From contig JAUVNS010000002.1 in assembly GCA_030599585.1 (NCBI GenBank), positions 160,001-224,000 of the forward strand: a stretch of 64,000 nt of DNA, read 5' to 3'. A model generated the notes under the pieces. It saw only the letters and a program-made list of their open reading frames with translations, had not been told where the DNA came from and did not search any database. Below are positions 9,129-21,186 of this stretch, piece by piece. Source of the DNA: Promethearchaeota archaeon. GTDB lineage: Archaea; Asgardarchaeota; Lokiarchaeia; Sigyniarchaeales; SOKP01. Every line of letters begins with the position of its first letter. Within the stretch, counting starts at the first letter, position 1. A program made the translations under genes and the position numbers.

Positions 9129-9905
9129 ATGCAATTAAAATCTTTAATTAAAAAGTGGCGCAAATATTCTGAACTATCAAATTTAGGAATAATAGTTCGT
9201 CGAAAATTCTTTAACAACGCCTTTGATGGGGCGCTTACTATTGCGGGCATAGTTAGTGGAAGTTTTATTATATTTCTTTCAAATCCAGCTCAAATTCTAA
9301 GTTCAGCCATTATTATAATAACGGGTTTTTCCACTGCTGTAGCAATTGGCATTAGTGGTTTATGGGGGGCTTTTCTTTCTGAAGAAGCCGAAAGAAAGAA
9401 AAAAATGACTGATTTAAAAAAAGATATGGTAATTTTTGAAGAAGATGAGAAAGGCAAAACAAATTTTAAAGAGATTGATTGTCTAAATAACGATGAGAAA
9501 GAAATTTTAGAAGAACAAGAGATTCAAAAAGCAATGATAACCCCCATAAATTTAAATCACTCTAATAATAAAAATTCTTTAAAGGAAAATAAAAATAAAA
9601 AAAATAATGCATCAATAATCGAACAATCTGAAAGATTTGCCACCATTATCGCATCTTTAGTCGACGGGGGAGCTCCTGTTTTAGGATCGGTACTTCCTTT
9701 GATTCCGTTTTTCTTTGGAGATACATTATCTTTATTTCATTTCATAATTTCTTATGGAGTTTTAATATCTATATTGATTTATTTAGGTATTTTTTTAGGA
9801 AAAATCTCTGGCGGGGGTCATGTTAAGTACGCAATGCATTTAGTTACAGCGGGTGTTGTGACATTACTAGTTTCTCTAATGTTACAATTAGTAATTCCTA
9901 CTTAA
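9129..9905 (+). CDS. VIT1/CCC1-family transporter (paralog 1)
   Basis: RRKFFNNAFDGALT, SGLWGAFLSEEAE, PLIPFF. Confidence 0.85.
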   Translation: MQLKSLIKKWRKYSELSNLGIIVRRKFFNNAFDGALTIAGIVSGSFIIFLSNPAQILSSAIIIITGFSTAVAIGISGLWGAFLSEEAERKKKMTDLKKDMVIFEEDEKGKTNFKEIDCLNNDEKEILEEQEIQKAMITPINLNHSNNKNSLKENKNKKNNASIIEQSERFATIIASLVDGGAPVLGSVLPLIPFFFGDTLSLFHFIISYGVLISILIYLGIFLGKISGGGHVKYAMHLVTAGVVTLLVSLMLQLVIPT

Positions 9906-10020: not shown

Positions 10021-10734
10021 ATGATAGAAAGATTTAAAACGTACGCAAAAATTTCTGATTTTGGATCTATTGCCCGTCGTTATTTTGTAAATAACTTTTA
10101 CGACGGAATGTTAACTATTATTGGCATTCTATTAGGATTTTTTATACTCATATTTAAAGAAGGACAACAAACTGTAGATAGTCATATTGTATTATTAACA
10201 GGGCTCGCAACTTCAATTTCAATGTTTATGTCGGGATTAAGTGGTTCATACATATCTGAAAAAGCAGAACAGAAGAGATCGAAATCAGAGTTAGATAAGG
10301 CTATGGTAATATTGAAGGAAGAGGACGAAGAAGATAAGTTATTAGACAAAAATGAAATCGAGAAAGCAATGTTGACGGTTAATTTTAATGATAAAAATCG
10401 AATAAAAAATCTAAATTTAAAAAAATCAAATTATAAAAGAAGGAAAGCAAAGACACTACAAGAAAAGGCAGAAAGATTTGCTAGCGTAATTGTATCGTTA
10501 GTAAATGGATGTGCGCCGCTTTTAGGTGGAATTGTTCCATTAATTCCGTTTTTTTTTACTCTAAAAGCAACATTTATTTTCTTCATCTATTCTTTTTTAA
10601 TTGTCTTTATGTGCATTGTTCTTCTAGGCGTTTTTGTAGGTTTTATTTCTCGAGAATCATTATGGAAAAATGTTCTTAAAATGCTAGTCGCTTTTGGTCT
10701 CACTATAATAATTTCAATGCTTCTACTAGATTAA
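10021..10734 (+). CDS. VIT1/CCC1-family transporter (paralog 2)
   Basis: RRYFVNNFYDGMLT, SGSYISEKAE, PLIPFF. Confidence 0.85.
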   Translation: MIERFKTYAKISDFGSIARRYFVNNFYDGMLTIIGILLGFFILIFKEGQQTVDSHIVLLTGLATSISMFMSGLSGSYISEKAEQKRSKSELDKAMVILKEEDEEDKLLDKNEIEKAMLTVNFNDKNRIKNLNLKKSNYKRRKAKTLQEKAERFASVIVSLVNGCAPLLGGIVPLIPFFFTLKATFIFFIYSFLIVFMCIVLLGVFVGFISRESLWKNVLKMLVAFGLTIIISMLLLD

Positions 10735-10814: not shown

Positions 10815-11591
10815 TTGACTTTTATAGGTATTGATATTGGTTCTCTTGCCACAAAAATCGTTTTGCTCAGCGAGGGAAAGATGATAGATCACCGTACAGA
10901 ACGCTCAACTTATGATTTTAAAAAGATAGGTCATAATTTATTCGATGACTTATTGGATAAAAATAGTTTGAAAAAATCTGATGTGTTCGTTATGAGTACC
11001 GGTTATGGGCGGAATACGATCGATATTGCTGATGATCGGGTCACTGAAATTACTGCCCACGCAAAAGGTACGCAATACTTCTTCCCAGATGTACATTCAG
11101 TTATAGACATTGGTGGTCAAGACAGTAAGGCTATTGTAATATCTAATAAAACGGGAAATGTTGTAGATTTTCAAATGAACGATAAATGCGCAGCAGGGAC
11201 TGGCAGATTTTTAGAAGTTATGGCTCATGCTTTGGAGGTTCCCATTGACCAATTTGGAGATTTAGCTTTAAGATCTAACAAATCGGCTTCAATAAGTTCC
11301 ACATGTACTGTTTTCGCAGAGAGTGAAGTCATAAGCTTGTTTGCGAGGGGCGCTTCAAAAGAAGAAATTGCCAGTGGGATTCATAGATCAATTGCGAGAA
11401 GAGTTGCTGGAATGTCTAAACGTATCGGAGTTGGGCCAAAATTAGTTTTTTGTGGTGGAGTTGCGTTAAACCCTGCTGTGAAAAAATATCTTGAAGACGA
11501 ACTTGGATATGAAGTCGAAATTCCCGAATTTCCACAATTAACGGGAGCTATCGGTGCTGCTTTAATCGCAGAAGCGAACAACTCGCAGTAG
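10815..11591 (+). CDS. hgdC: 2-hydroxyacyl-CoA dehydratase activator (HgdC/HadI ASKHA ATPase)
   Basis: GIDIGS, TGYGR, DIGGQDSK, MNDKCAAGTGRFLE, STCTVFAESEVIS. Confidence 0.93.
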   Translation: MTFIGIDIGSLATKIVLLSEGKMIDHRTERSTYDFKKIGHNLFDDLLDKNSLKKSDVFVMSTGYGRNTIDIADDRVTEITAHAKGTQYFFPDVHSVIDIGGQDSKAIVISNKTGNVVDFQMNDKCAAGTGRFLEVMAHALEVPIDQFGDLALRSNKSASISSTCTVFAESEVISLFARGASKEEIASGIHRSIARRVAGMSKRIGVGPKLVFCGGVALNPAVKKYLEDELGYEVEIPEFPQLTGAIGAALIAEANNSQ

Positions 11592-11703
11592 ATGAGAAAT
11601 ATTCTTTTGACTTAATATTTTTATCTATATTTTAAGTCGGTAAACTTTTTTAAAGAATTAATCTTTTTCTGACAAATAACATTAAACAGTTGACTTTATC
11701 ACG

Positions 11704-12843
11704 ATGGATGACTCTAATCTACTATCTGATTTTACTTTCTTCCTTAAGGAAAAAAAACAGGAAGGGATCAAAATTGTCGCTTACTTATCCCACGATAACA
11801 TTCCCGAGGAGTTGATTGACGCTGCTGGTTTTTTCCCCTTAAGGTTAATCTTTGGAGGGAACGATGAACTAATGGACGCAAGTCACGATTATTTGCCACC
11901 TTCCACATGTGCATTTGCACAATCATGTATTGGACTATTTTCAATTAAGCCAAACTACTACAAGTTTTTGGAATTGGTTGATTACATCATAGTTTCCAAT
12001 CACTGCGTATCAGACATTTGCGTTTCAGAAATCATTTCCAAATACTTTAACATTCCTCGTTTGAATTTTTATGTTTCGTATACAAAGAATGAAAACAGTC
12101 TAAAATATTTTAAGCTCGAATTACAAGACTTTAGAAATCAACTTGAATCTACTTTGGATAGAAAGATATCCGATGAGGATATACACAACAGCATATTAAA
12201 ATTCAATAATTTCAAAAAAAAGTTATTAGAAATTAATGAACTGGAAATGTCAGGCTCGGAAAAATTGAAATTAATTCATAAATCAATGCTATTTGGACCA
12301 GATTTTCTTCACGACTTAGAAAATTTGATTCAAAAATTTAAAGACGCACCTCAACCAGTTTCCAATACAGCTATAGAAGTTTTACTTACGGGGTGCTCTA
12401 TCTTTATTGATGACAACATGATAGACTTGATTGAGGAGGGGGGAGGTAACATTGTTTTTTTTGATACCTGGATTGGGAACCATTATTATTCACAAATTAT
12501 CGAAGATAATCTAATAGATATAGAGAAAGATCCTTTGGATTTGTTAGTTCTTAAGTTTAAAAATAATATTTATAGTGACCATAGCGTACCTGACTTTCTT
12601 GAACGGAAAGTATCACATATTCTGAGATATTCTGAAAATTACGCAAAAAATAAAGGCAGAAAGTTAGGGGTCATCAATCACATAATTAAGTTTTGCGACC
12701 ATATTTCGCTCATGTCTTCTTTCTTAAAGGATACATTACAAAAAAAGGGGATTCAAGTACTAAATTTAGAAAGAGATTATTCCAGAGCTAACCGTGGCCA
12801 ATTATCAACAAGAATAGAAGCGTATTTGGAGATGATGAAATGA
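11704..12843 (+). CDS. 2-hydroxyacyl-CoA dehydratase subunit (HgdB-like)
   Basis: IPEELIDAAG, three Fe-S Cys (STCAF, NHC, KFCD), C-terminal GQLSTRIEAYLEM. Confidence 0.85.
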   Translation: MDDSNLLSDFTFFLKEKKQEGIKIVAYLSHDNIPEELIDAAGFFPLRLIFGGNDELMDASHDYLPPSTCAFAQSCIGLFSIKPNYYKFLELVDYIIVSNHCVSDICVSEIISKYFNIPRLNFYVSYTKNENSLKYFKLELQDFRNQLESTLDRKISDEDIHNSILKFNNFKKKLLEINELEMSGSEKLKLIHKSMLFGPDFLHDLENLIQKFKDAPQPVSNTAIEVLLTGCSIFIDDNMIDLIEEGGGNIVFFDTWIGNHYYSQIIEDNLIDIEKDPLDLLVLKFKNNIYSDHSVPDFLERKVSHILRYSENYAKNKGRKLGVINHIIKFCDHISLMSSFLKDTLQKKGIQVLNLERDYSRANRGQLSTRIEAYLEMMK

Positions 12844-14198
12844 GTCTAATTGCCGATGAGATAGTATCTTTTAGTTCAGTATTACGTATTGCTTACAATC
12901 TGTTAAACGGGAGAAACTACCTAAAAAGGAAGAAATTTCGAGATAAAGAAAAATTAGTAGCTATAACTTTGCCGTTTTCGGATTTAGCTTTTGCTGCAGG
13001 CACGGTACCAGTTTTACCAATAAGGATGCACAAATTTGAAATAAGTCAATACCTAAATTACCTAGGTTCTGCTTCTAGTATTTTTGGGTGGAATTCTGTT
13101 TCGAATTTTCTAAGCTTTGTTAAAAATCTGGGCATAGAACAAGTAAGTAAAATTATTGACGATATTATAGAGGGTGTAATTGATACCATTAATATAAAAT
13201 TCAACGAAATGTATGACGTAGGAGTTGAAAATGGAATTTCAAGTGATTTCTGTTACGGATTAAAAAGTTTAGCTGGCATGTATTTTACCAAAGGTCAAAA
13301 TGTTGATGCTAGTTTAAATGTTACTATTCGATGTAGTGCGTATAATAAATATTTAGAGTCTTTGAAATCAATTCATGAAGGACCAAAACAAATCTGGGTT
13401 GATATTCCACCGAGAAATCTGGGAAACTCAGTAGAATTACTCACTGATAATATTTCAAACGCCTTAAACGAGTTCGAGAAGCTAACAGGAAATAAGGTAT
13501 CAGATAACGATTTGAGAGCCCATTTTAAAATTGGAAATCAAGTAAAAAGGTCGTATAAGAACATAATTTACGATATAAGTGCTTCTGACTTTTATCCTTG
13601 CAATCCCGCAACTTTTAGTGAAATTATGGCACTGTTAAGTATTACATTTCAAGATTATAACTCTAATGCGGTTCGATATAGAGACAACATCGTATCCCTA
13701 GAAAAAGAGATGAGAGAAAGAATTAGAAAGGGAGTTGGTATGGATGTGTCAAAAATGCCGAGGATTTTCGTGACCCCCATGTTCGGAGGATGGGAACCCA
13801 AAAGTCATGATATAATATATGAGTTAGGAGGAAGAGCTTTATACGCTGATTGGGAACTACTAAAATTCTTGGAAGAAATACCAACTGGATCACACACAAA
13901 TCCTTCTGAAGAATACGCACGATTTCTTATGAATGCTACAGAAACAGGAATAGGTTGTGATAATGACAAATTAACAGATTCCTACTTGGAAATGGCAAGA
14001 AAGCTAAATGCAGACGGTATAATATTCTTTCAATTATTTGGGTGCCATTCCATCTCAAATTGTTATGCGATGTTAAGAGAGAAAGTAAGACGAGAACTTG
14101 AAATACCGATTACAGCAATTACTTTCAATAAAATTGGGGATAATGTAGAGCAAGTGAAGACAAGACTCGGTGCCTTTATGGAAATGTTTAAATTTTAG
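12840..14198 (+). CDS. 2-hydroxyacyl-CoA dehydratase subunit (divergent HgdA-like)
   Basis: Cys in SDFCY, IRCS, FGCH; C-terminal EQVKTRLGAFMEM; ATGA overlap with the previous gene. Confidence 0.8.
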   Translation: MSLIADEIVSFSSVLRIAYNLLNGRNYLKRKKFRDKEKLVAITLPFSDLAFAAGTVPVLPIRMHKFEISQYLNYLGSASSIFGWNSVSNFLSFVKNLGIEQVSKIIDDIIEGVIDTINIKFNEMYDVGVENGISSDFCYGLKSLAGMYFTKGQNVDASLNVTIRCSAYNKYLESLKSIHEGPKQIWVDIPPRNLGNSVELLTDNISNALNEFEKLTGNKVSDNDLRAHFKIGNQVKRSYKNIIYDISASDFYPCNPATFSEIMALLSITFQDYNSNAVRYRDNIVSLEKEMRERIRKGVGMDVSKMPRIFVTPMFGGWEPKSHDIIYELGGRALYADWELLKFLEEIPTGSHTNPSEEYARFLMNATETGIGCDNDKLTDSYLEMARKLNADGIIFFQLFGCHSISNCYAMLREKVRRELEIPITAITFNKIGDNVEQVKTRLGAFMEMFKF

Positions 14199-14259: not shown

Positions 14260-15366
14260 TTAATGACTGATTTTTGCTTTTGAACTTCTTTTTATTTCAA
14301 ACACTTCTTCTCCTTTCATTTGTTTCGTTATATAGTCAGCCAAATTTAAGTTCAAAATGTTTCTTCCCTCTTTTTTAAAATCACATCCACATAAAATCGA
14401 AGATAAATTTATGATAGAATCAATTATAGGTGTAGAAATTTCTAAGAATTCTCCTAATGACGCCATAGGTACAAGTCCAGTTGGAATATCCTCAGTGAAA
14501 TATCTAGTTATTAATTCTTTTGGAGCAGCAATGTTTTTATATGCTTTTACTTTTTGAATAGCTTTATAGATACTGTTTGCTTTAAATCCATAAGATTTCT
14601 CCACCCATTTACAAAAATTTATTTGTTTTAAATTTAACTTTTCAAAAATCTTTCTGAATTCCATTTGAAGAGTCTCAAGAATTTCACAAGTATGTGAAGA
14701 TGCCCCTTGTGCATAAAATTTGAACGTTCTTCCATAATCTATTGCACTAGCGTTCATTAATGAGAGAGTTGGATGCAATAACATCCCAATATTATTTAAT
14801 GTAACTTGCAGATAATTATCATTAGGATTCATTTGGGGAAAAACATCTTTCAATGTATCACTGATGAAAAACGTATCCTTCTCTGGAAAAGCCGAAAATT
14901 CAACAGAATCCTTGAATGTAAGAATTTGGACTTTATTTTTTTTCAATTGTCTTGATGTAAAAAGTAATGTTTGAGTTTCAGCAATAAAAATAGGGAGATT
15001 CCCTCTTTCATTTTCTATTATACTTCTAACCTCTACAGCTCCAAAAGTTCTACCTGGATTCAACAATATTGTCTGATCGTTTGTTAAAAAAGGTGCAATG
15101 TTTTTAGCAATACTTTTATGTGCTGAAGCAGGAGTTACTATTAAAATAATATCTACATCCTTAACGGCCAAATGTAATTTTTGTGTAACTAGATCAATGG
15201 GAAAAAAACCTTTTAATTTTCCTTTTGCTTTTATACCTCCCTTCTTTTTGATTTCACAAATTCTAGAATATGAACGGTTATAAAGGTTCACAGAATGTCC
15301 TTTAGATGATAAATATGCCGCAAACGCTCGACCACCATTTCCGGCTCCAATAACACAGAATCTCAT
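14260..15366 (-). CDS. NAD(P)-dependent opine (octopine/nopaline-type) dehydrogenase
   Basis: VIGAGNGG Rossmann motif, LNPGRTFGA, AETQTL, NIGMLLHP, RYFTEDIPTGL. Confidence 0.88.
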   Translation of the reverse strand: MRFCVIGAGNGGRAFAAYLSSKGHSVNLYNRSYSRICEIKKKGGIKAKGKLKGFFPIDLVTQKLHLAVKDVDIILIVTPASAHKSIAKNIAPFLTNDQTILLNPGRTFGAVEVRSIIENERGNLPIFIAETQTLLFTSRQLKKNKVQILTFKDSVEFSAFPEKDTFFISDTLKDVFPQMNPNDNYLQVTLNNIGMLLHPTLSLMNASAIDYGRTFKFYAQGASSHTCEILETLQMEFRKIFEKLNLKQINFCKWVEKSYGFKANSIYKAIQKVKAYKNIAAPKELITRYFTEDIPTGLVPMASLGEFLEISTPIIDSIINLSSILCGCDFKKEGRNILNLNLADYITKQMKGEEVFEIKRSSKAKISH

Positions 15367-17117
15367 TTATCCAACACCTTTGTGATGGATTTTTCTTTTT
15401 GTTGTAATGAATTAGTAATATTTTTAAATGGGCTATTAAAAATAATGTCTTTTATTCTTTCAAGTTCATCGTAAGGTTTTTGTTGAGACTCATTCCATGA
15501 GTAGCAAGCACCATTAATTAAATTGGTTTTAATTTTACCTAACGCAAATTTATTATTGTTCAAATGTGGAGCGTCAAATATACCATATTTTACGAGTCGA
15601 TTTAAAACTTTATAATTGGTATATGGACTTTTCGATTCATCTTCATTTTTTGTTAAATGTGGTATTAAGTCGACTATCCATTTGGCTTGTCCTATTAATT
15701 CTTCTTTCCTTTCCTCAATTTTTTTATCTATAATGTTAATTTTACTAGAATAAACGTTATCTATAACTTGATCCACTATTTTACAACTTTCTATTATATT
15801 TTCTGGTCGAGCTGTATGGCTAGCTTCAGAAAAACTAACTACATGAACAATGTCTGGTCTAATAGCTAATTGAACAAACGTCGCTAGAGCAAGCTGTCCT
15901 TTGGCTTTATCCAAATCTAATGGGAAACTTGCTAATCCCGTCCGAACTTGTTTAATTATCGTAAAGTTCTCATTGACGAGCGTTTGAAGTAACTCATCTT
16001 TAGCGAGAATTTTTGCTAAGTCCATATCAAGTGAACTTGATGGAGGTGTATTAAACATATATTGTGCTATAAAATTTTTGACGCCTAATTTTTTCGCTAT
16101 AATTCCACTTAAATACATATCGGCAACAGCTATAGCATCAGGAGCATTTCGAAGGCTCCATTGATGTGGATCGTTTACTTCAACGGGAATATTATGCTTT
16201 CCGTACCATTCTATTGCGTTTAGATGCTGTTTAATCGATTCTTTTAAAGTTAAAGGCCCTCTTCTATCCATTTGATTGAACCAAAAAATAGGAATTGCCG
16301 CCCAAGCATTTTGAATTGTATCTCGATACAATTTTCCTAATTTAATGAAATCGCGTGTTCCAGCATATATCCTTAACATAGGATAGTTTCCAGTTAATCT
16401 TGCTTGATGGAGCTTTTCGAAATCTTGTTGAGTGCGCAAAGGAACCCCGCCCGCTCCAGATGATTCTTTATCTTGATTTTCAGGGTGGAAGTAATTTGCT
16501 TGCGTATTTTGATCGGGCGCAATTGAAATAACATCTAAGACTTTTGCTTTAGCAATTTTTTTTATTCCTTCGATTGTTTCATCGAAATTAGGTAATCCAA
16601 AGTGCGCTCTAATTACAGGATAAGGTTTCTTCCATTTTATTCGAGAAATAATGTCCATAGGGATTTCTGTTTTACTTTCTGATTTTCCTTTCTCATTTCT
16701 TAAGATAGAAATTAATTCAAATTTTGATTCCCCTCCGACAAAATATTCATCGATCCCTTCATATTTTCTTGCAATCTCAACTACTTCAGGTGTTCCCGCA
16801 AAAAATAATTTTTTTGGTTTTTTTTCTAATTTTATAAAACTTTTGAAAAATTCATTTAGTAAAGGTCTAACAGTGTCTGCCGTTAAACGATAACTTAACC
16901 CTACAATGTTAGGGTCATACTTTTTAATTTGATCGATAACAATTGAAATAGGGGTAGCAGGTCCTAAAAATAAATTATTATAACCTAACTGTTTTGAAAT
17001 TTGAATGAAATTATATGTACCAGCTACATGAACGCATTGTCCTATACATGCAGTTAAAATTCTTTTATTTTTTTTTTTCTCTAAATATGTGTTAGTCATC
17101 ATTATTGAATAAAACAC
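15363..17117 (-). CDS. Cobalamin-dependent protein: B12-binding domain fused to a glutamate-mutase-E-like barrel
   Basis: GQCVHVAG (DxHxxG variant), LGP, GLSYRL, FAG in the N-terminal domain; barrel segment RAHFGLP...DVISIAPDQNTQ; start may be ATG at 17102 or 17099. Confidence 0.72.
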   Translation of the reverse strand: MFYSIMMTNTYLEKKKNKRILTACIGQCVHVAGTYNFIQISKQLGYNNLFLGPATPISIVIDQIKKYDPNIVGLSYRLTADTVRPLLNEFFKSFIKLEKKPKKLFFAGTPEVVEIARKYEGIDEYFVGGESKFELISILRNEKGKSESKTEIPMDIISRIKWKKPYPVIRAHFGLPNFDETIEGIKKIAKAKVLDVISIAPDQNTQANYFHPENQDKESSGAGGVPLRTQQDFEKLHQARLTGNYPMLRIYAGTRDFIKLGKLYRDTIQNAWAAIPIFWFNQMDRRGPLTLKESIKQHLNAIEWYGKHNIPVEVNDPHQWSLRNAPDAIAVADMYLSGIIAKKLGVKNFIAQYMFNTPPSSSLDMDLAKILAKDELLQTLVNENFTIIKQVRTGLASFPLDLDKAKGQLALATFVQLAIRPDIVHVVSFSEASHTARPENIIESCKIVDQVIDNVYSSKINIIDKKIEERKEELIGQAKWIVDLIPHLTKNEDESKSPYTNYKVLNRLVKYGIFDAPHLNNNKFALGKIKTNLINGACYSWNESQQKPYDELERIKDIIFNSPFKNITNSLQQKEKSITKVLDK

Positions 17118-17454: not shown

Positions 17455-17460
17455 TTCATA

Positions 17461-17521
17461 TTTTCATTTTCTTTTTTTAAAATTTGTTTCGTTACCATTC
17501 AGAATTAAATCATAAACCCAT
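17461..17521. repeat. ~60-bp imperfect direct repeat, copy 1
   Basis: ttttcattttctttttttaaaatttgtttcgttaccattcagaattaaatcataaacccat matches 19663-19721. Confidence 0.85.
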
Positions 17522-17527
17522 GGAATT

Positions 17528-18613
17528 TTAAATATCGATAAATTTCTTATGGATATAGGGACTAGTCATTGCTCTTAAAAGAGCTTCATAATTTAAATCA
17601 AAATGCAATTTTTGTCCAATCTGAAATTGATTATCTCTTATATCTACAACTAAGTAGTCGCTTGAAGCTCCAAGAATATTAATACTTTCTTTAGGATTTA
17701 ATCCTTTTACTGCAATATCTTGTCTACCTATATTTAAAAGTGCTTGTGTTCTAATTGTAACGCTTTTTTTTCCGTTGTTAATTTTTTTATTATAAGTTTG
17801 GACACTTTCCCCAAATGCATTTGATACAATAATCCCTTTGGGGATCATAGATCTTTGTTTTAATTCAACAATTTCTGTTATTAACCTAAAAGCGTCTGTA
17901 TAAAGATTTGGAATTGGTTCATAATTTATTGTTTCTTTTCCTAGAAATATAGCTTCTCCAATTCTAAAATTATTTATTTCACCAATGTTTTTACACGATT
18001 TAAACCAGTTAAAATTTGCAGAATTTCCTCCTGAAACAAATTCTAATTCCAATTCAAATTTATCCTTGATCCTAAAGACTAATTTTGAAAATTCATTCAT
18101 ATTTTCATCTGTCGGGATGATACCACCAAAACATTTGAAATTTGTACCAATTCCACTTAAATTTATATTTTTTAGTTTTAAAATCTCTTCGACAAAAAAT
18201 TCAATATTGAAGATATTTATTCCTTCTCTTAAATCTCCCATATCTACCATTAGAATTATATTATGTATCTTTTTTTGTTTAACGGCTTCATTTGAAAGCA
18301 TTCTTATGGTCTTTAATTCTGAATTTAGGCTATAATTTGCGTATTTAACAACAAGAGGAATTTCAGTAATGCTTGGAATACGAATTAAAACAAATTGAGC
18401 TCTAATATTATTTTTTTTCATTTTAATAATATTGTTAATTCGTGAATCTCCTAAATACTCTATTCCTCCTTGAACCAATGTCATTGCAATAGTAGGGTTT
18501 CCTAAGACAAGTTTTGTAATTCCAATAATAGATACATTTCGCTGAGTTAAAAGATTCTTTAATAATTTTGCGTTATGTCTAATTTTTCTCAAATTTATTT
18601 CAAGTATTGCCAT
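17528..18613 (-). CDS. PLP-dependent alanine/ornithine racemase family (Orr/YhfX-like)
   Basis: GITK (PLP Lys), GDSRI, MVDMGDLREG, GTNFKCFGG, SGGNS, RIGEAIFLG, GASSD. Confidence 0.88.
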   Translation of the reverse strand: MAILEINLRKIRHNAKLLKNLLTQRNVSIIGITKLVLGNPTIAMTLVQGGIEYLGDSRINNIIKMKKNNIRAQFVLIRIPSITEIPLVVKYANYSLNSELKTIRMLSNEAVKQKKIHNIILMVDMGDLREGINIFNIEFFVEEILKLKNINLSGIGTNFKCFGGIIPTDENMNEFSKLVFRIKDKFELELEFVSGGNSANFNWFKSCKNIGEINNFRIGEAIFLGKETINYEPIPNLYTDAFRLITEIVELKQRSMIPKGIIVSNAFGESVQTYNKKINNGKKSVTIRTQALLNIGRQDIAVKGLNPKESINILGASSDYLVVDIRDNQFQIGQKLHFDLNYEALLRAMTSPYIHKKFIDI

Positions 18614-18655: not shown

Positions 18656-19642
18656 TTATCCAATTCTTCTTAATGCTTCTTTTATAATTTCATCTAAGAA
18701 TTCACTACTTTTTTTGTTTTCTGCAATTGCCATAAAGCCCATGTAACTATGAGGTTTATCTTTTGGTGTACACATTAATCCTGCAAAACAATTTATTTCT
18801 AATAAAAAAGGACCTTCTTCTGATAAGATCATGTCTACACGACCATAATCTCTAAGATTTATCGCTTGAAATGCTGAAATAGCTAATTTCTGTAATTCTT
18901 TATACTGTTTCGGAGTTAATTTTGCAGGGCATTGGAATTTATCGTCATCTAACTCTTTTTTATTAAATGTTAAGAATTTTTCCTTTTCCTTGTGTATTAT
19001 TTCTAATAAAGGTAAGGCTCTAATCTTATTTCCATTACCAATAATTCCACATGTTATTTCCCTACCTTTTAAAAATTTTTCAATAAGAACAGGTTGATTT
19101 ATTGTGTTTAATCTTTTTTCAACTCCTTTAATTAATTCGTTATATGAACAGATAAGTGAGGATTCGTCGATTCCAGAACTTCCTCTCCCTTGAGAGGGTT
19201 TTATAAATAAAGGATAATCAAATGGCTTGTTTTTCTTAAAAATTTCACAATCCTCTTTTGATCTTGCTAAAATATAAGGTGATGTTGGTAATCCTTTTTT
19301 AAACCACAAGTCTTTAGTAAGAACCTTATCGGTTGCTATAACGCATCCAAAAAGATCAGACCCTACATAAGGTATCTCTAATTCTTCTAAAATAGCTGTT
19401 TCAACAATGCTGGATACATTAAATACGATATCAATGTCAAGACTTTTTAAATCAGAAATAATATTGTCGTTCCATTTTAATATTTTTACATCATAACCCG
19501 CTTCATTTAAAGCACTTAAATGATGTTCTACTTCTTGATTAGTTGTATCGATAATATTCTCGTTTTTAGCAAATTTCTCTTGTATTGAAAAATTTCCTCG
19601 TTTTTTCTCAAGTACGCAAATTTTTATTTTTTCCTTAGTCAT
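18656..19642 (-). CDS. D-Ala-D-Ala ligase-like ATP-grasp enzyme with a divergent substrate site
   Basis: IPYVGS, DKVLTK, PLFIKP..GSSGI, IEKFLKGRE, GRVD, LEIN; ATG 19642 used (TTG 19651 is an alternative). Confidence 0.82.
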   Translation of the reverse strand: MTKEKIKICVLEKKRGNFSIQEKFAKNENIIDTTNQEVEHHLSALNEAGYDVKILKWNDNIISDLKSLDIDIVFNVSSIVETAILEELEIPYVGSDLFGCVIATDKVLTKDLWFKKGLPTSPYILARSKEDCEIFKKNKPFDYPLFIKPSQGRGSSGIDESSLICSYNELIKGVEKRLNTINQPVLIEKFLKGREITCGIIGNGNKIRALPLLEIIHKEKEKFLTFNKKELDDDKFQCPAKLTPKQYKELQKLAISAFQAINLRDYGRVDMILSEEGPFLLEINCFAGLMCTPKDKPHSYMGFMAIAENKKSSEFLDEIIKEALRRIG

Positions 19643-19662
19643 CTTGATCAAATTTTTTCACA

Positions 19663-19721
19663 TTTTCATTTTCTTCTTTTAAAATTTGTTTCGTTATCAT
19701 TCAGAATAAACTTAAACCCAT
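19663..19721. repeat. ~60-bp imperfect direct repeat, copy 2
   Basis: ttttcattttcttcttttaaaatttgtttcgttatcattcagaataaacttaaacccat; lies ~20 nt upstream of the ligase start. Confidence 0.85.
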
Positions 19722-19869: not shown

Positions 19870-21186
19870 ATGGCGTCAAATTTCTTAACGGGTAGAGATT
19901 ACTTAAAAAAGAAAAAATTTAGAGAAAAGAAGAAGTTAATTTCAGTTGCCTTAGGATTTCCAGATTTAGCTTTTGCTGTTGGAGCAGTTCCAGTTTTTCC
20001 AATTCGAATGGAAACCTTCGAATTTAGCAAGTATTTGATGCCTTTACAATCTGCTACATCTGTATTAGGTTGGGAATTGACATCAAAATTTTTGGATTTT
20101 GCTCGTCAGTTCGATGTTCTAAAAATTGTTGATAAAATTCTTGAAGATGTTATTACTTCGATAAACAAGAAATATAATCAAATGTACGAATTAGGCGTCA
20201 GTAATGGCGTTCCTTCGGAATTATGTTATGGGATTAACGCTCTTTATGGAATGCATAAATCTAAGGGTAAGAATTTAGACGCTAATCTTACATTCGCAAT
20301 GCGATGTGGCAGTTGGAATACTTTTTCTGAATCGTTAAAAACGACAGTACCGAGTCAAATCATAATCGATGTTCCTTCAAAGAATTCAGATAATGAGGAT
20401 ATTGCTTTAAAGGAAATGGTTAATAATGTCAAGAATGGAATTAGTGAACTAGAGAAGATAACGGGAAATTTCGTATCAGATAATAGTTTACAGAAGCAGT
20501 TTCGTATAGGCAATCAAGTGAAAAGATTTTATAAAACTATCCTTTACGAGATTGGCGATTCTAACTTTTATCCATGCAATCCCGCTACATTCGCAGAAAT
20601 TTTAGCGCTCTTAACTATCACTTTTCAAGATTATAATTCAAACTCTCAAAGATATTTAGAAAATCTGAGTAATTTAGTTAAAGAGATGAGAGAGCGGATT
20701 AGAAAGGGCATAGGGATGGATGTTTCTCATATGCCAAAAGTATTGTTTGCCCCAATGTACCAAGGATGGGAACCAGCCGTGCACGAAATTATCTATGAAT
20801 TAGGGGGTAGAATAATTTATGCCGATTGGGATATGTTAGGTTTTTTAGAAGAAATTCCCATATCTCAAAAATCTGATCCTATAGAAGAATATGCGCGTTT
20901 TCTACTAAACGCTTCAACCAAAGGAATAGGATGTGACGATGAAAACATGACTAATTCGTATTTAAAAGCTGCTGAAAACATGAACATTGATGGATTAATC
21001 TTCAATCAAGTATATGGGTGTCCATCAATCTCAAAGACTTATGAGAGGCTAAAAGAAAAACTAAAAGCGGAGTTTAACATACCAGCTATAAGTATTAATT
21101 TCAAAAAAATCGGTGATAATATAGAACAAGTTAGAAAACCTCTCATACCGTTTATGGAAAGATTAAAAGATACAAGAAATTTTTAA
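19870..21186 (+). CDS. Second divergent HgdA-like dehydratase subunit (paralog of 12840..14198)
   Basis: Shares FYPCNPATF.EI.ALL.ITFQDYNSN and EMRERIRKG.GMDVS; homology extends upstream to an ACG at 19822. Confidence 0.8.
   Translation: MASNFLTGRDYLKKKKFREKKKLISVALGFPDLAFAVGAVPVFPIRMETFEFSKYLMPLQSATSVLGWELTSKFLDFARQFDVLKIVDKILEDVITSINKKYNQMYELGVSNGVPSELCYGINALYGMHKSKGKNLDANLTFAMRCGSWNTFSESLKTTVPSQIIIDVPSKNSDNEDIALKEMVNNVKNGISELEKITGNFVSDNSLQKQFRIGNQVKRFYKTILYEIGDSNFYPCNPATFAEILALLTITFQDYNSNSQRYLENLSNLVKEMRERIRKGIGMDVSHMPKVLFAPMYQGWEPAVHEIIYELGGRIIYADWDMLGFLEEIPISQKSDPIEEYARFLLNASTKGIGCDDENMTNSYLKAAENMNIDGLIFNQVYGCPSISKTYERLKEKLKAEFNIPAISINFKKIGDNIEQVRKPLIPFMERLKDTRNF

Follow-up and report, generated by a model that had tools for sequence, protein, structure and literature searches.

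A fused B12-binding, GlmE-like mutase paired with an opine dehydrogenase in an Asgard archaeon: a candidate adenosylcobalamin isomerase with a Cys variant of the DxHxxG motif

What does a cobalamin enzyme do next to an opine dehydrogenase? The question is raised by a 64,000-nucleotide stretch of the genome of a Promethearchaeota archaeon (GTDB lineage Archaea; Asgardarchaeota; Lokiarchaeia; Sigyniarchaeales; SOKP01), positions 160,001 to 224,000 of contig JAUVNS010000002.1 in assembly GCA_030599585.1 (hereafter, the window). It encodes a protein in which a B12-binding domain is fused to a barrel resembling GlmE, the catalytic subunit of glutamate mutase (hereafter, the mutase), and the gene for an opine dehydrogenase directly follows. 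An original prediction, made from the sequence alone, took the protein for a single-chain GlmE-like adenosylcobalamin (AdoCbl) isomerase acting on a substrate other than glutamate. Our computational analyses support this reading through the fold, a retained ribose-binding Glu, the replacement of two substrate-binding Arg residues, the coexistence of the family with true GlmE in some genomes, and the absence of methylaspartate ammonia-lyase (MAL) from the source genome. Within the GlmE-like mutases, the protein falls into a clade of uncharacterised members that most likely depend on AdoCbl, with a His-Cys dyad and a pocket apparently not built for glutamate.

Fold and family of the fused mutase

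The mutase gene lies on the minus strand (Table 1) and opens with a GTG start codon, with M6 or M7 possibly being the true start; translation of the plus strand over the same interval gave many stops. The source genome is a 4.85-Mb Asgard archaeal assembly that is 100% complete by markers. Its only match to Pfam Met_asp_mut_E (PF06368) is the mutase gene, it encodes a CobA-type adenosyltransferase and three MCM-type (methylmalonyl-CoA mutase) enzymes, and MAL (PF07476) was not found in it. As predicted, the B12-binding domain is fused N-terminally to a long second domain, expected at ~420 aa and found as ~410 aa (residues 151-560) after a B12-binding domain at residues ~18-142. The absence of a radical-SAM CxxxCxxC motif was likewise confirmed, as the protein has just four cysteines (C24, C28, C445 and C538).

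The mutase scored 33.4 bits against PF06368 (cut-off 26.6, E 2.4e-8, residues 168-489) and 22.1 bits against the NCBIfam GlmE equivalog TIGR01503, far below the cut-off of 390.1. BLASTP against true GlmE gave 21% identity (E 8e-5). AlphaFold gave a poor model (pLDDT 59) when supplied with 20 almost identical sequences from Asgard archaea, and the model used throughout was computed from an alignment of 85 diverse sequences. The check suggested with the original prediction, a Foldseek search with such a model, returned the GlmE structures 6h9e_B and 1cb7_B as best matches (E 2.6e-17); next came the aminomutases for ornithine and lysine, along with members of the methylmalonyl-CoA mutase family.

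Structural superposition with VIA-align gave the highest score for GlmE 1cb7_B (Z 30.8, 375 residues, root-mean-square deviation 3.0, model residues 151-558 against chain residues 43-440). Lysine 5,6-aminomutase (Z 27-29; 8t0v_A 29.3, 1xrs_A 27.2), ornithine 4,5-aminomutase (Z ~26; 3kp0_A 26.3) and methylmalonyl-CoA mutase (Z ~21) followed, and pterin-binding, methyltransferase-type barrels reached Z ~15. Based on this ranking, with the isomerases at Z 21-31, the modelled barrel is of the AdoCbl-isomerase type and nearest to GlmE. It is not a corrinoid methyltransferase barrel, the fold that the original prediction had set against its own reading. Alignment of the mutase family profile with an alignment built from true GlmE genes (hhalign) gave a probability of 88% (E 3.4e-6) over 376 columns, and reproduced the pairing of RAHFGLP...APDQNTQ with QPRAG...TIDSYTR of GlmE that had been drawn by eye.

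The cobalamin motif and the substrate pocket

The B12-binding domain is of the Rossmann type and has no helical cap. A Cys at the usual Asp of the base-off/His-on motif (GQCVHVAG) had been noticed from the sequence; it was read here as C28-V-H30-V-A-G33 and is conserved in homologues. The protein follows the DxHxxG(41)SxL(26-28)GG pattern in register with Cys replacing Asp: S75 (in S75-Y-R-L) lies 41 residues past G33, and A107-G108 stands at the GG position, which is GG in most homologues. The Pfam B12-binding family (PF02310) scored weakly on the mutase. Searched against B12 domains in the PDB, the family profile matched 4JGI (E 5e-8), 2YXB (1e-7), MttC (2e-5) and MetH (9e-5), and also GlmS, OraE and KamE. 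VIA-align of model residues 14-143 gave Z 15.3 with 4jgi and Z 15.2 with 1y80.

Cys28 was invariant in 20 Asgard homologues (65-87% identity) and nearly invariant among relatives 36-48% identical. In the 85-sequence alignment, H30 and G33 were invariant in the core clade and Cys28 occurred in 60/63 core-clade sequences, the remaining three (from Bipolaricaulota, Acetothermia and Fraserbacteria) having D-A-H-V-A-G. The sister clade (610-636 aa) showed the canonical Asp, as D-[AP]-H-T-x-G, in 17 of its 22 sequences. Judged by the topology of a FastTree phylogeny rooted on the sister clade, Asp would be ancestral and Cys would have been gained at the base of the core clade, with one reversion, and one independent Cys within the sister clade. 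Since both residues occur at position 28 across the clades, Cys and Asp look functionally interchangeable as partner of the axial His. Selenocysteine at position 28 was considered and rejected. One in-frame TGA had been flagged in several Asgard homologues; tblastn on five loci reproduced it in one, where it lies upstream of the real start (query position 16) and not at Cys28, and the other four alignments were stop-free.

The substrate pocket was compared with GlmE residue by residue using the hhalign alignment. In GlmE, Arg66, Arg100 and Arg149 form an arginine claw for the two carboxylates of glutamate. The claim that the substrate-binding Arg residues are replaced was borne out for two of them: Arg100 pairs with Q206 (local anchor D-x-x-T) and Arg149 with Y251 (local anchor G-T-x-D), with R249 two residues before the latter. 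The third, Arg66, pairs ambiguously, with H172. Glu171 of GlmE corresponds to the invariant D284, followed by an invariant R286, the Tyr177/Tyr181 loop is deleted, and the ribose-binding Glu corresponds to E431, which BLASTP aligns in the same way.

The window protein has all of R170, H172, Q206, R249, Y251, D284, R286 and E431, and each is retained by 62-63 of the 63 core sequences; the conserved pocket further comprises D195, S198, W279, E313, N315, R323, D327, Q352, N356, R392 and H425. The aligned pocket residues together with R249, R323, R392, E313 and H425 are conserved in core and sister clades alike, so the two clades probably share their chemistry. The pyridoxal phosphate (PLP) lysine of lysine and ornithine aminomutases, which we take to lie in the B12 domain ~11 residues after the His ligand, was also sought. 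Lys does not reach 70% of the aligned sequences in any B12-domain column, and at the His+11 and His+12 positions (41 and 42) most members of the family have Ala and Glu.

Pairing with an opine dehydrogenase and other neighbours

The dehydrogenase start codon (ATG, 15366-15364) overlaps the mutase stop codon (TGA, 15365-15363) in an ATGA, an arrangement by which the two genes are judged translationally coupled. The original prediction had called the dehydrogenase coupled, and synteny gives strong support to a functional coupling. Among 80 loci, drawn from the Asgard archaea, Bacillota, Chloroflexota, Bipolaricaulota, Thermococci and further groups, 70 have an opine dehydrogenase gene next to that of the mutase, and in most of those without it the contig runs out at the mutase gene or close to it. 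Asgard archaea and Chloroflexota have the mutase gene first, Bacillota the dehydrogenase gene. An opine dehydrogenase gene was also adjacent in 33 of 51 sister-clade loci, and no other neighbour is general across the mutase loci.

The 2009 genome paper on Halothermothrix orenii described a putative operon of an octopine dehydrogenase and a B12-binding protein, and reported pairs of the Hore_09740/Hore_09750 type in thermophilic anaerobes, their role then unassigned (PMC2626281). We liken that pair to the window genes by its published description, which has the same two-gene arrangement; the paper gave no fold, mechanism or substrate, and neither the barrel of GlmE type nor the Cys at the motif Asp was noted in it (PMC2626281). 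The mutase/dehydrogenase pair was present in four Halanaerobiales loci of our set (L051, L066, L074 and L088).

The residues of the dehydrogenase point to its substrate class. Hot-spring opine dehydrogenases (mODHs) that carry Arg and Gly at ArODH positions 111 and 198 prefer NADPH, pyruvate and the acidic L-amino acids Asp, Glu and cysteate; exchanging the residues at these two positions switches the specificity of ArODH from hydrophobic to acidic, and the efficiency of mODHs on L-Asp is low, with a reported kcat/KM of 0.04 s-1 mM-1 (Telek et al. 2024, PMC10787698). The window enzyme, which is related to ArODH/CENDH (1BG6), has the same Arg/Gly pair (R106 and G194) with the catalytic H198, as well as Asn and Ser at positions 34 and 36 (ArODH numbering), changes characteristic of the NADPH-, Asp/Glu-preferring mODHs (PMC10787698). 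The Arg, Gly and catalytic His were invariant in 102/102 partner dehydrogenases (67 core-clade, 35 sister-clade). The mODHs had been characterised apart from any genomic context (PMC10787698). By analogy, we infer that the partner natively uses as its amine substrate some acidic amino acid, but not plain aspartate; it is plausibly the product of the mutase, or else the opine is plausibly the mutase substrate. Because the mutase is nearly always paired with an opine dehydrogenase apparently tuned to acidic substrates, the pair probably makes an acidic amino-acid derivative.

Table 1 Coordinates of the mutase, its parts and its neighbours in the window.
Feature	Position	Strand	Basis
Fused B12-binding/GlmE-like mutase gene, 584 aa	15363..17117	-	Open reading frame list; Pfam PF06368 and PF02310; AlphaFold pLDDT 92.4, pTM 0.91
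Rossmann-type B12-binding domain, residues ~18-142	16692..17066	-	Family profile against PDB; VIA-align
C28-V-H30-V-A-G33, Cys variant of base-off/His-on DxHxxG	17019..17036	-	Translation; homologue conservation
GlmE-like TIM barrel and C-terminal domain (model), residues ~151-560	15438..16667	-	VIA-align 1cb7_B; hhalign; conservation table
Opine dehydrogenase (CENDH/ArODH-like) gene	14260..15366	-	Pfam Octopine_DH 131.8 bits; 1BG6 E 1.3e-75
Direct repeat copy 1, 54 nt	17455..17508	.	Just downstream of racemase gene
Orr-like PLP racemase	17528..18613	-	NCBIfam racem_Orr 366.5 bits, below 480 cut-off
Ddl-like ATP-grasp ligase	18656..19651	-	Pfam Dala_Dala_lig_C 103 bits
Direct repeat copy 2, 54 nt, 93% identical to copy 1	19657..19710	.	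Just upstream of ligase gene

In 11 of 18 Bacillota loci, a cyclic di-AMP (c-di-AMP) riboswitch (RF00379) lies directly upstream of the operon, scoring 95-107 bits against a gathering score of 38. Riboswitches of this class control osmotic-homeostasis genes, and a role in making a stress solute would therefore fit the Bacillota carriers. Several loci add genes for carboxylate-amine ligases. Ddl-like ATP-grasp genes stand beside the pair in 13 loci including the window (on the same strand in eight), and AsnB-like genes occur in nine, lying between the mutase and dehydrogenase genes in three of these. One homologue (P0123) carries a C-terminal GSH-S/RimK-type ATP-grasp domain; another (P0137) has a weak, sub-threshold Peptidase_M15_3 match. 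Six Asgard loci have a major facilitator superfamily (MFS) transporter gene after the dehydrogenase gene.

The sister-clade loci are glycan loci, with glycosyltransferases, an initiating sugar transferase, a DegT aminotransferase, ATP-grasp enzymes of the L-amino-acid-ligase and sugar-transfer types, and an aldo-keto reductase. They were scanned for with a single protein, the whole-clade alignment being too diverse for a pattern scan.

The ligase and racemase genes of the window form a cassette bracketed by the two direct repeats. Relatives of the same family lack both genes and have a paralogue of HGD-D directly upstream of their mutase gene, so the cassette looks like an insertion beside the mutase gene, and we treated it as a lineage-specific addition. 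All four genes (mutase, dehydrogenase, racemase and ligase) recur only in L012 (92-95% identical) and, in another order, in the Armatimonadota metagenome-assembled genome L068, and the racemase is present in 3/81 mutase loci. A pyrrolysine-like reading, in which the mutase, the Ddl-like ligase and the dehydrogenase would follow the logic of PylB, PylC and PylD, was considered and dropped, the ligase and racemase being rare, repeat-bracketed additions. PylC was not among the best 25 of the 50 NCBIfam families matched by the ligase.

Other genes were seen around the pair. On the plus strand, positions 10815-14198 hold a gene for a BcrAD/BadFG-type activator ATPase and two genes for HGD-D/double-cubane-type subunits; a third HGD-D paralogue (19870-21186) lies on the far side of the minus-strand mutase cluster, and this split arrangement recurs in the Asgard relatives L013-L017 and L036. 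Tandem VIT1-family (vacuolar iron transporter-like) genes at 9129-9905 and 10021-10734 stand just upstream of the activator gene.

In L018 (12415-15029), and also in L014, L016, L022 and L038, a three-gene set lies near the opine dehydrogenase gene on the opposite strand. It encodes a weak GCS2-like carboxylate-amine ligase, a gamma-glutamyl cyclotransferase-like protein and a class-I glutamine amidotransferase/C26 peptidase, and hints at gamma-glutamyl-type amide chemistry. In a Bipolaricaulota locus (L054:7781-7854) and an Acetothermia locus (L076:7796-7869), a tRNA gene stands ~130 nt upstream of the mutase gene; in both loci DxHxxG is retained and an AsnB-like gene separates the mutase gene from that of the dehydrogenase.

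A mutase homologue was found in 77/201 sampled Asgard genomes and in 38/85 high-quality ones, and versions at least 62% identical to the window protein are confined to its own GTDB family. A pattern scan for the family returned more than 579 genomic matches. Carriers beyond the Asgard archaea include many anaerobic bacteria, among them [Clostridium] ultunense and gut and rumen Bacteroidota with glycan loci.

Candidate reactions of the module

Beyond the fold, motifs, conservation, synteny, riboswitch and fusions shown above, we infer a cofactor form, a reaction type, a substrate class, an order of the two enzymes and a physiological role as follows. The reading that we hold somewhat more probable than its competitors combined is an AdoCbl radical isomerase of the glutamate-mutase lineage that forms a fixed module with the opine dehydrogenase and rearranges an acidic amino acid or its opine. 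A GlmS-like, B12-binding small subunit is fused ahead of the GlmE-like catalytic barrel. Cobalamin would be bound base-off/His-on through H30, with C28 replacing Asp as the hydrogen-bond partner of H30. Homolysis of the Co-C bond would yield the 5'-deoxyadenosyl radical, its ribose held by E431, and this radical would take a hydrogen from a substrate in the remodelled Arg-rich pocket (R170, R249, R286, R323 and R392, with D284 at the Glu171 position).

The mutase and the dehydrogenase would act as a two-enzyme module, the partner reductively condensing pyruvate with an acidic L-amino acid at the expense of NADPH, as its specificity residues predict. The likeliest chemistry would be a carbon-skeleton rearrangement of the glutamate-mutase type on the acidic amino acid or its N-(1-carboxyethyl) opine, giving a branched polycarboxylate amino-acid derivative. 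To this module carboxylate-amine ligases are often added, of the ATP-grasp type in the window and of AsnB-like or L-amino-acid-ligase types elsewhere. The product may be a small stress-related solute or an exported compound, as suggested by the c-di-AMP riboswitch in Bacillota and the MFS transporter in Asgard loci; in the sister clade it may serve to decorate a surface glycan.

Several observations weigh against this proposal. Neither the protein nor three family profiles matched GlmE when searched directly against PDB sequences, where only the B12 domain gave matches; the relationship of the barrel emerged from Pfam, hhalign and structure, and the residue equivalences rest on the one profile alignment with its probability of 88%. 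Within it, the counterpart of Arg66 is ambiguous, as R170 lies two residues ahead of H172. The B12 domain itself is closest in sequence to methyltransferase corrinoid proteins (4JGI, MttC, 1Y80 and MetH). We know of no characterised precedent for a His-Cys ligand pair, and with the motif Asp replaced by Cys, cofactor binding or redox behaviour could differ.

A MutL-type reactivase (PF13941) was not found in the source genome. The prediction of an acidic substrate for the partner is transferred from other enzymes. The riboswitch was found in 0/10 non-Bacillota bacterial and archaeal loci, and no Rfam family, the c-di-AMP riboswitch included, was found in the window. The distribution of the mutase among Asgard genomes is patchy, so its role is accessory and may differ between lineages. 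Our literature search found no functional study of the family or the pair.

The best surviving alternative, which we regard as unlikely, is that the protein is an ordinary glutamate mutase in fused form, converting L-glutamate to (2S,3S)-3-methylaspartate, which the dehydrogenase would then condense with pyruvate. GlmE is the best match by both fold and Pfam, and 3-methylaspartate would suit a partner predicted to take acidic, aspartate-like amino acids. The mutase shares with GlmS/GlmE (MutS/MutE) of Clostridium cochlearium (PDB 1CB7, 1CCW and 6H9E; EC 5.4.99.1) the barrel, the C-terminal domain, a Rossmann B12 domain with a His ligand, the adenosyl-ribose Glu (E431) and an acidic residue at the Glu171 position (D284); R170 and R249 stand two residues ahead of the Arg66 and Arg149 positions. 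The two differ in that the mutase has both subunits in one chain, with the B12 domain first, Cys for the Asp of DxHxxG, and ~17-21% identity.

Against plain glutamate mutase activity, Arg100 and Arg149 become Gln and Tyr at strongly anchored positions, the Tyr177/Tyr181 loop is missing, and the equivalog score falls far short of its cut-off. The mutase gene also stands with an opine dehydrogenase gene instead of the MAL and MutL genes of GlmS/GlmE operons. Moreover, some carriers retain the canonical enzyme as well. Tepidanaerobacter acetatoxydans has a separate mutL-glmE-mal operon (L090; MutL 558 bits, GlmE 778 bits, MAL 415 bits) besides its riboswitch-controlled opine dehydrogenase/fused-mutase operon (L073), and a Tissierellaceae bacterium genome has both a family member and canonical GlmE. 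Nothing in our computational analysis suggests plain glutamate mutase activity.

A second alternative is an aminomutase cycle independent of PLP. The original prediction had speculated that an imine from the opine dehydrogenase could substitute for PLP, which we consider unlikely, also because the family has no counterpart of the PLP lysine found in known aminomutases. In such a cycle the dehydrogenase would attach the amino acid to pyruvate as an opine, the B12 enzyme would shift the nitrogen to the next carbon, and the dehydrogenase would free a beta-amino acid such as beta-glutamate with regeneration of pyruvate; this we rate as improbable. The same low rating applies to the broader version, in which the two enzymes use pyruvate as a handle to turn an acidic alpha-amino acid (e.g., glutamate) into a beta- or branched isomer serving as an osmotic-stress solute. 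The obligate pairing and translational coupling speak for a cycle, as do the lysine and ornithine aminomutase barrels with Z 26-29, close to the 30.8 of GlmE. The PLP lysine is absent, so an amino shift would need another handle, and control by an osmotic-stress riboswitch would suit a beta-amino-acid osmolyte.

The chemistry argues otherwise: the nitrogen of an opine is sp3, so the azacyclopropylcarbinyl route of the PLP aminomutases would be unavailable, and we know of no precedent for an opine-based cycle of this kind. The frequent ATP-consuming ligase partners further suggest that the opine or a derivative is a product and not a transient carrier. If such a cycle did operate, it would define a new AdoCbl enzyme class with a His-Cys ligand dyad and could fill a gap in how anaerobes and Asgard archaea make anionic osmolytes.

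Slightly less probable still is a corrinoid methyltransferase resembling methionine synthase, with methylcobalamin serving in methyl transfer to or from the opine or an amino acid. MetH and methyltransferase corrinoid proteins (4JGI, 1Y80 and 7XCN) are the nearest sequence relatives of the B12 domain alone and the source of the name 'methionine synthase', which NCBI gives to most Asgard members (P0002, P0008, P0010 and many more). The 2009 H. orenii paper also saw a distant similarity to methionine synthase (PMC2626281). The mutase differs from MetH in lacking the cap, homocysteine, folate and activation domains, and its barrel resembles those of the AdoCbl isomerases far more closely than pterin-binding ones. 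No cap (B12-binding_2), homocysteine- or pterin-binding Pfam family was found in the protein at E 0.01 or better. With the defining MetH domains all absent, the naming is very likely a systematic mis-annotation. Three superfamily homologues (P0141, P0145 and P0147) carry a fused MutL/GlmL reactivase domain and, with the conserved adenosyl-ribose Glu and the CobA and MCM-type enzymes encoded in the source genome, favour AdoCbl chemistry.

The weakest candidate is an aminomutase of the lysine 5,6 or ornithine 4,5 type (1XRS, 8T0V, 3KOW and 3KP1), using both PLP and AdoCbl and acting on D-ornithine or D-lysine from the Orr-like racemase encoded just upstream (410-bp gap, same strand). Enzymes of this type share the AdoCbl TIM barrel, and their B12 domains match the family profile, but we rejected this reading as very improbable because the B12 domain of the mutase has no conserved lysine. 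In addition, the domain order differs, ~327-341 residues align compared with 375 for GlmE, the racemase is a rare, repeat-bracketed gene, and the mutase does not have the gene neighbours known from the fermentation of lysine or ornithine, its universal partner being an opine dehydrogenase of the acidic-amino-acid type.

The AdoCbl isomerase of the glutamate-mutase lineage thus stands as the preferred reading for a widespread family with a rebuilt pocket, a natural Asp-to-Cys swap beside the cobalt-ligating His and a fixed opine-dehydrogenase partner, in a gene pair that has been noticed since 2009. To our knowledge, AdoCbl-dependent isomerases number only about a dozen, and additions to them are rare. 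Identifying the reaction of the mutase would add a new B12 radical reaction and would clarify what the 'acidic' opine dehydrogenases employed in biocatalysis truly act on. It would also reveal a metabolite under c-di-AMP (osmotic-stress) control, and would correct the 'methionine synthase' naming, which skews the reconstruction of metabolism in those archaea that are most closely related to eukaryotes.

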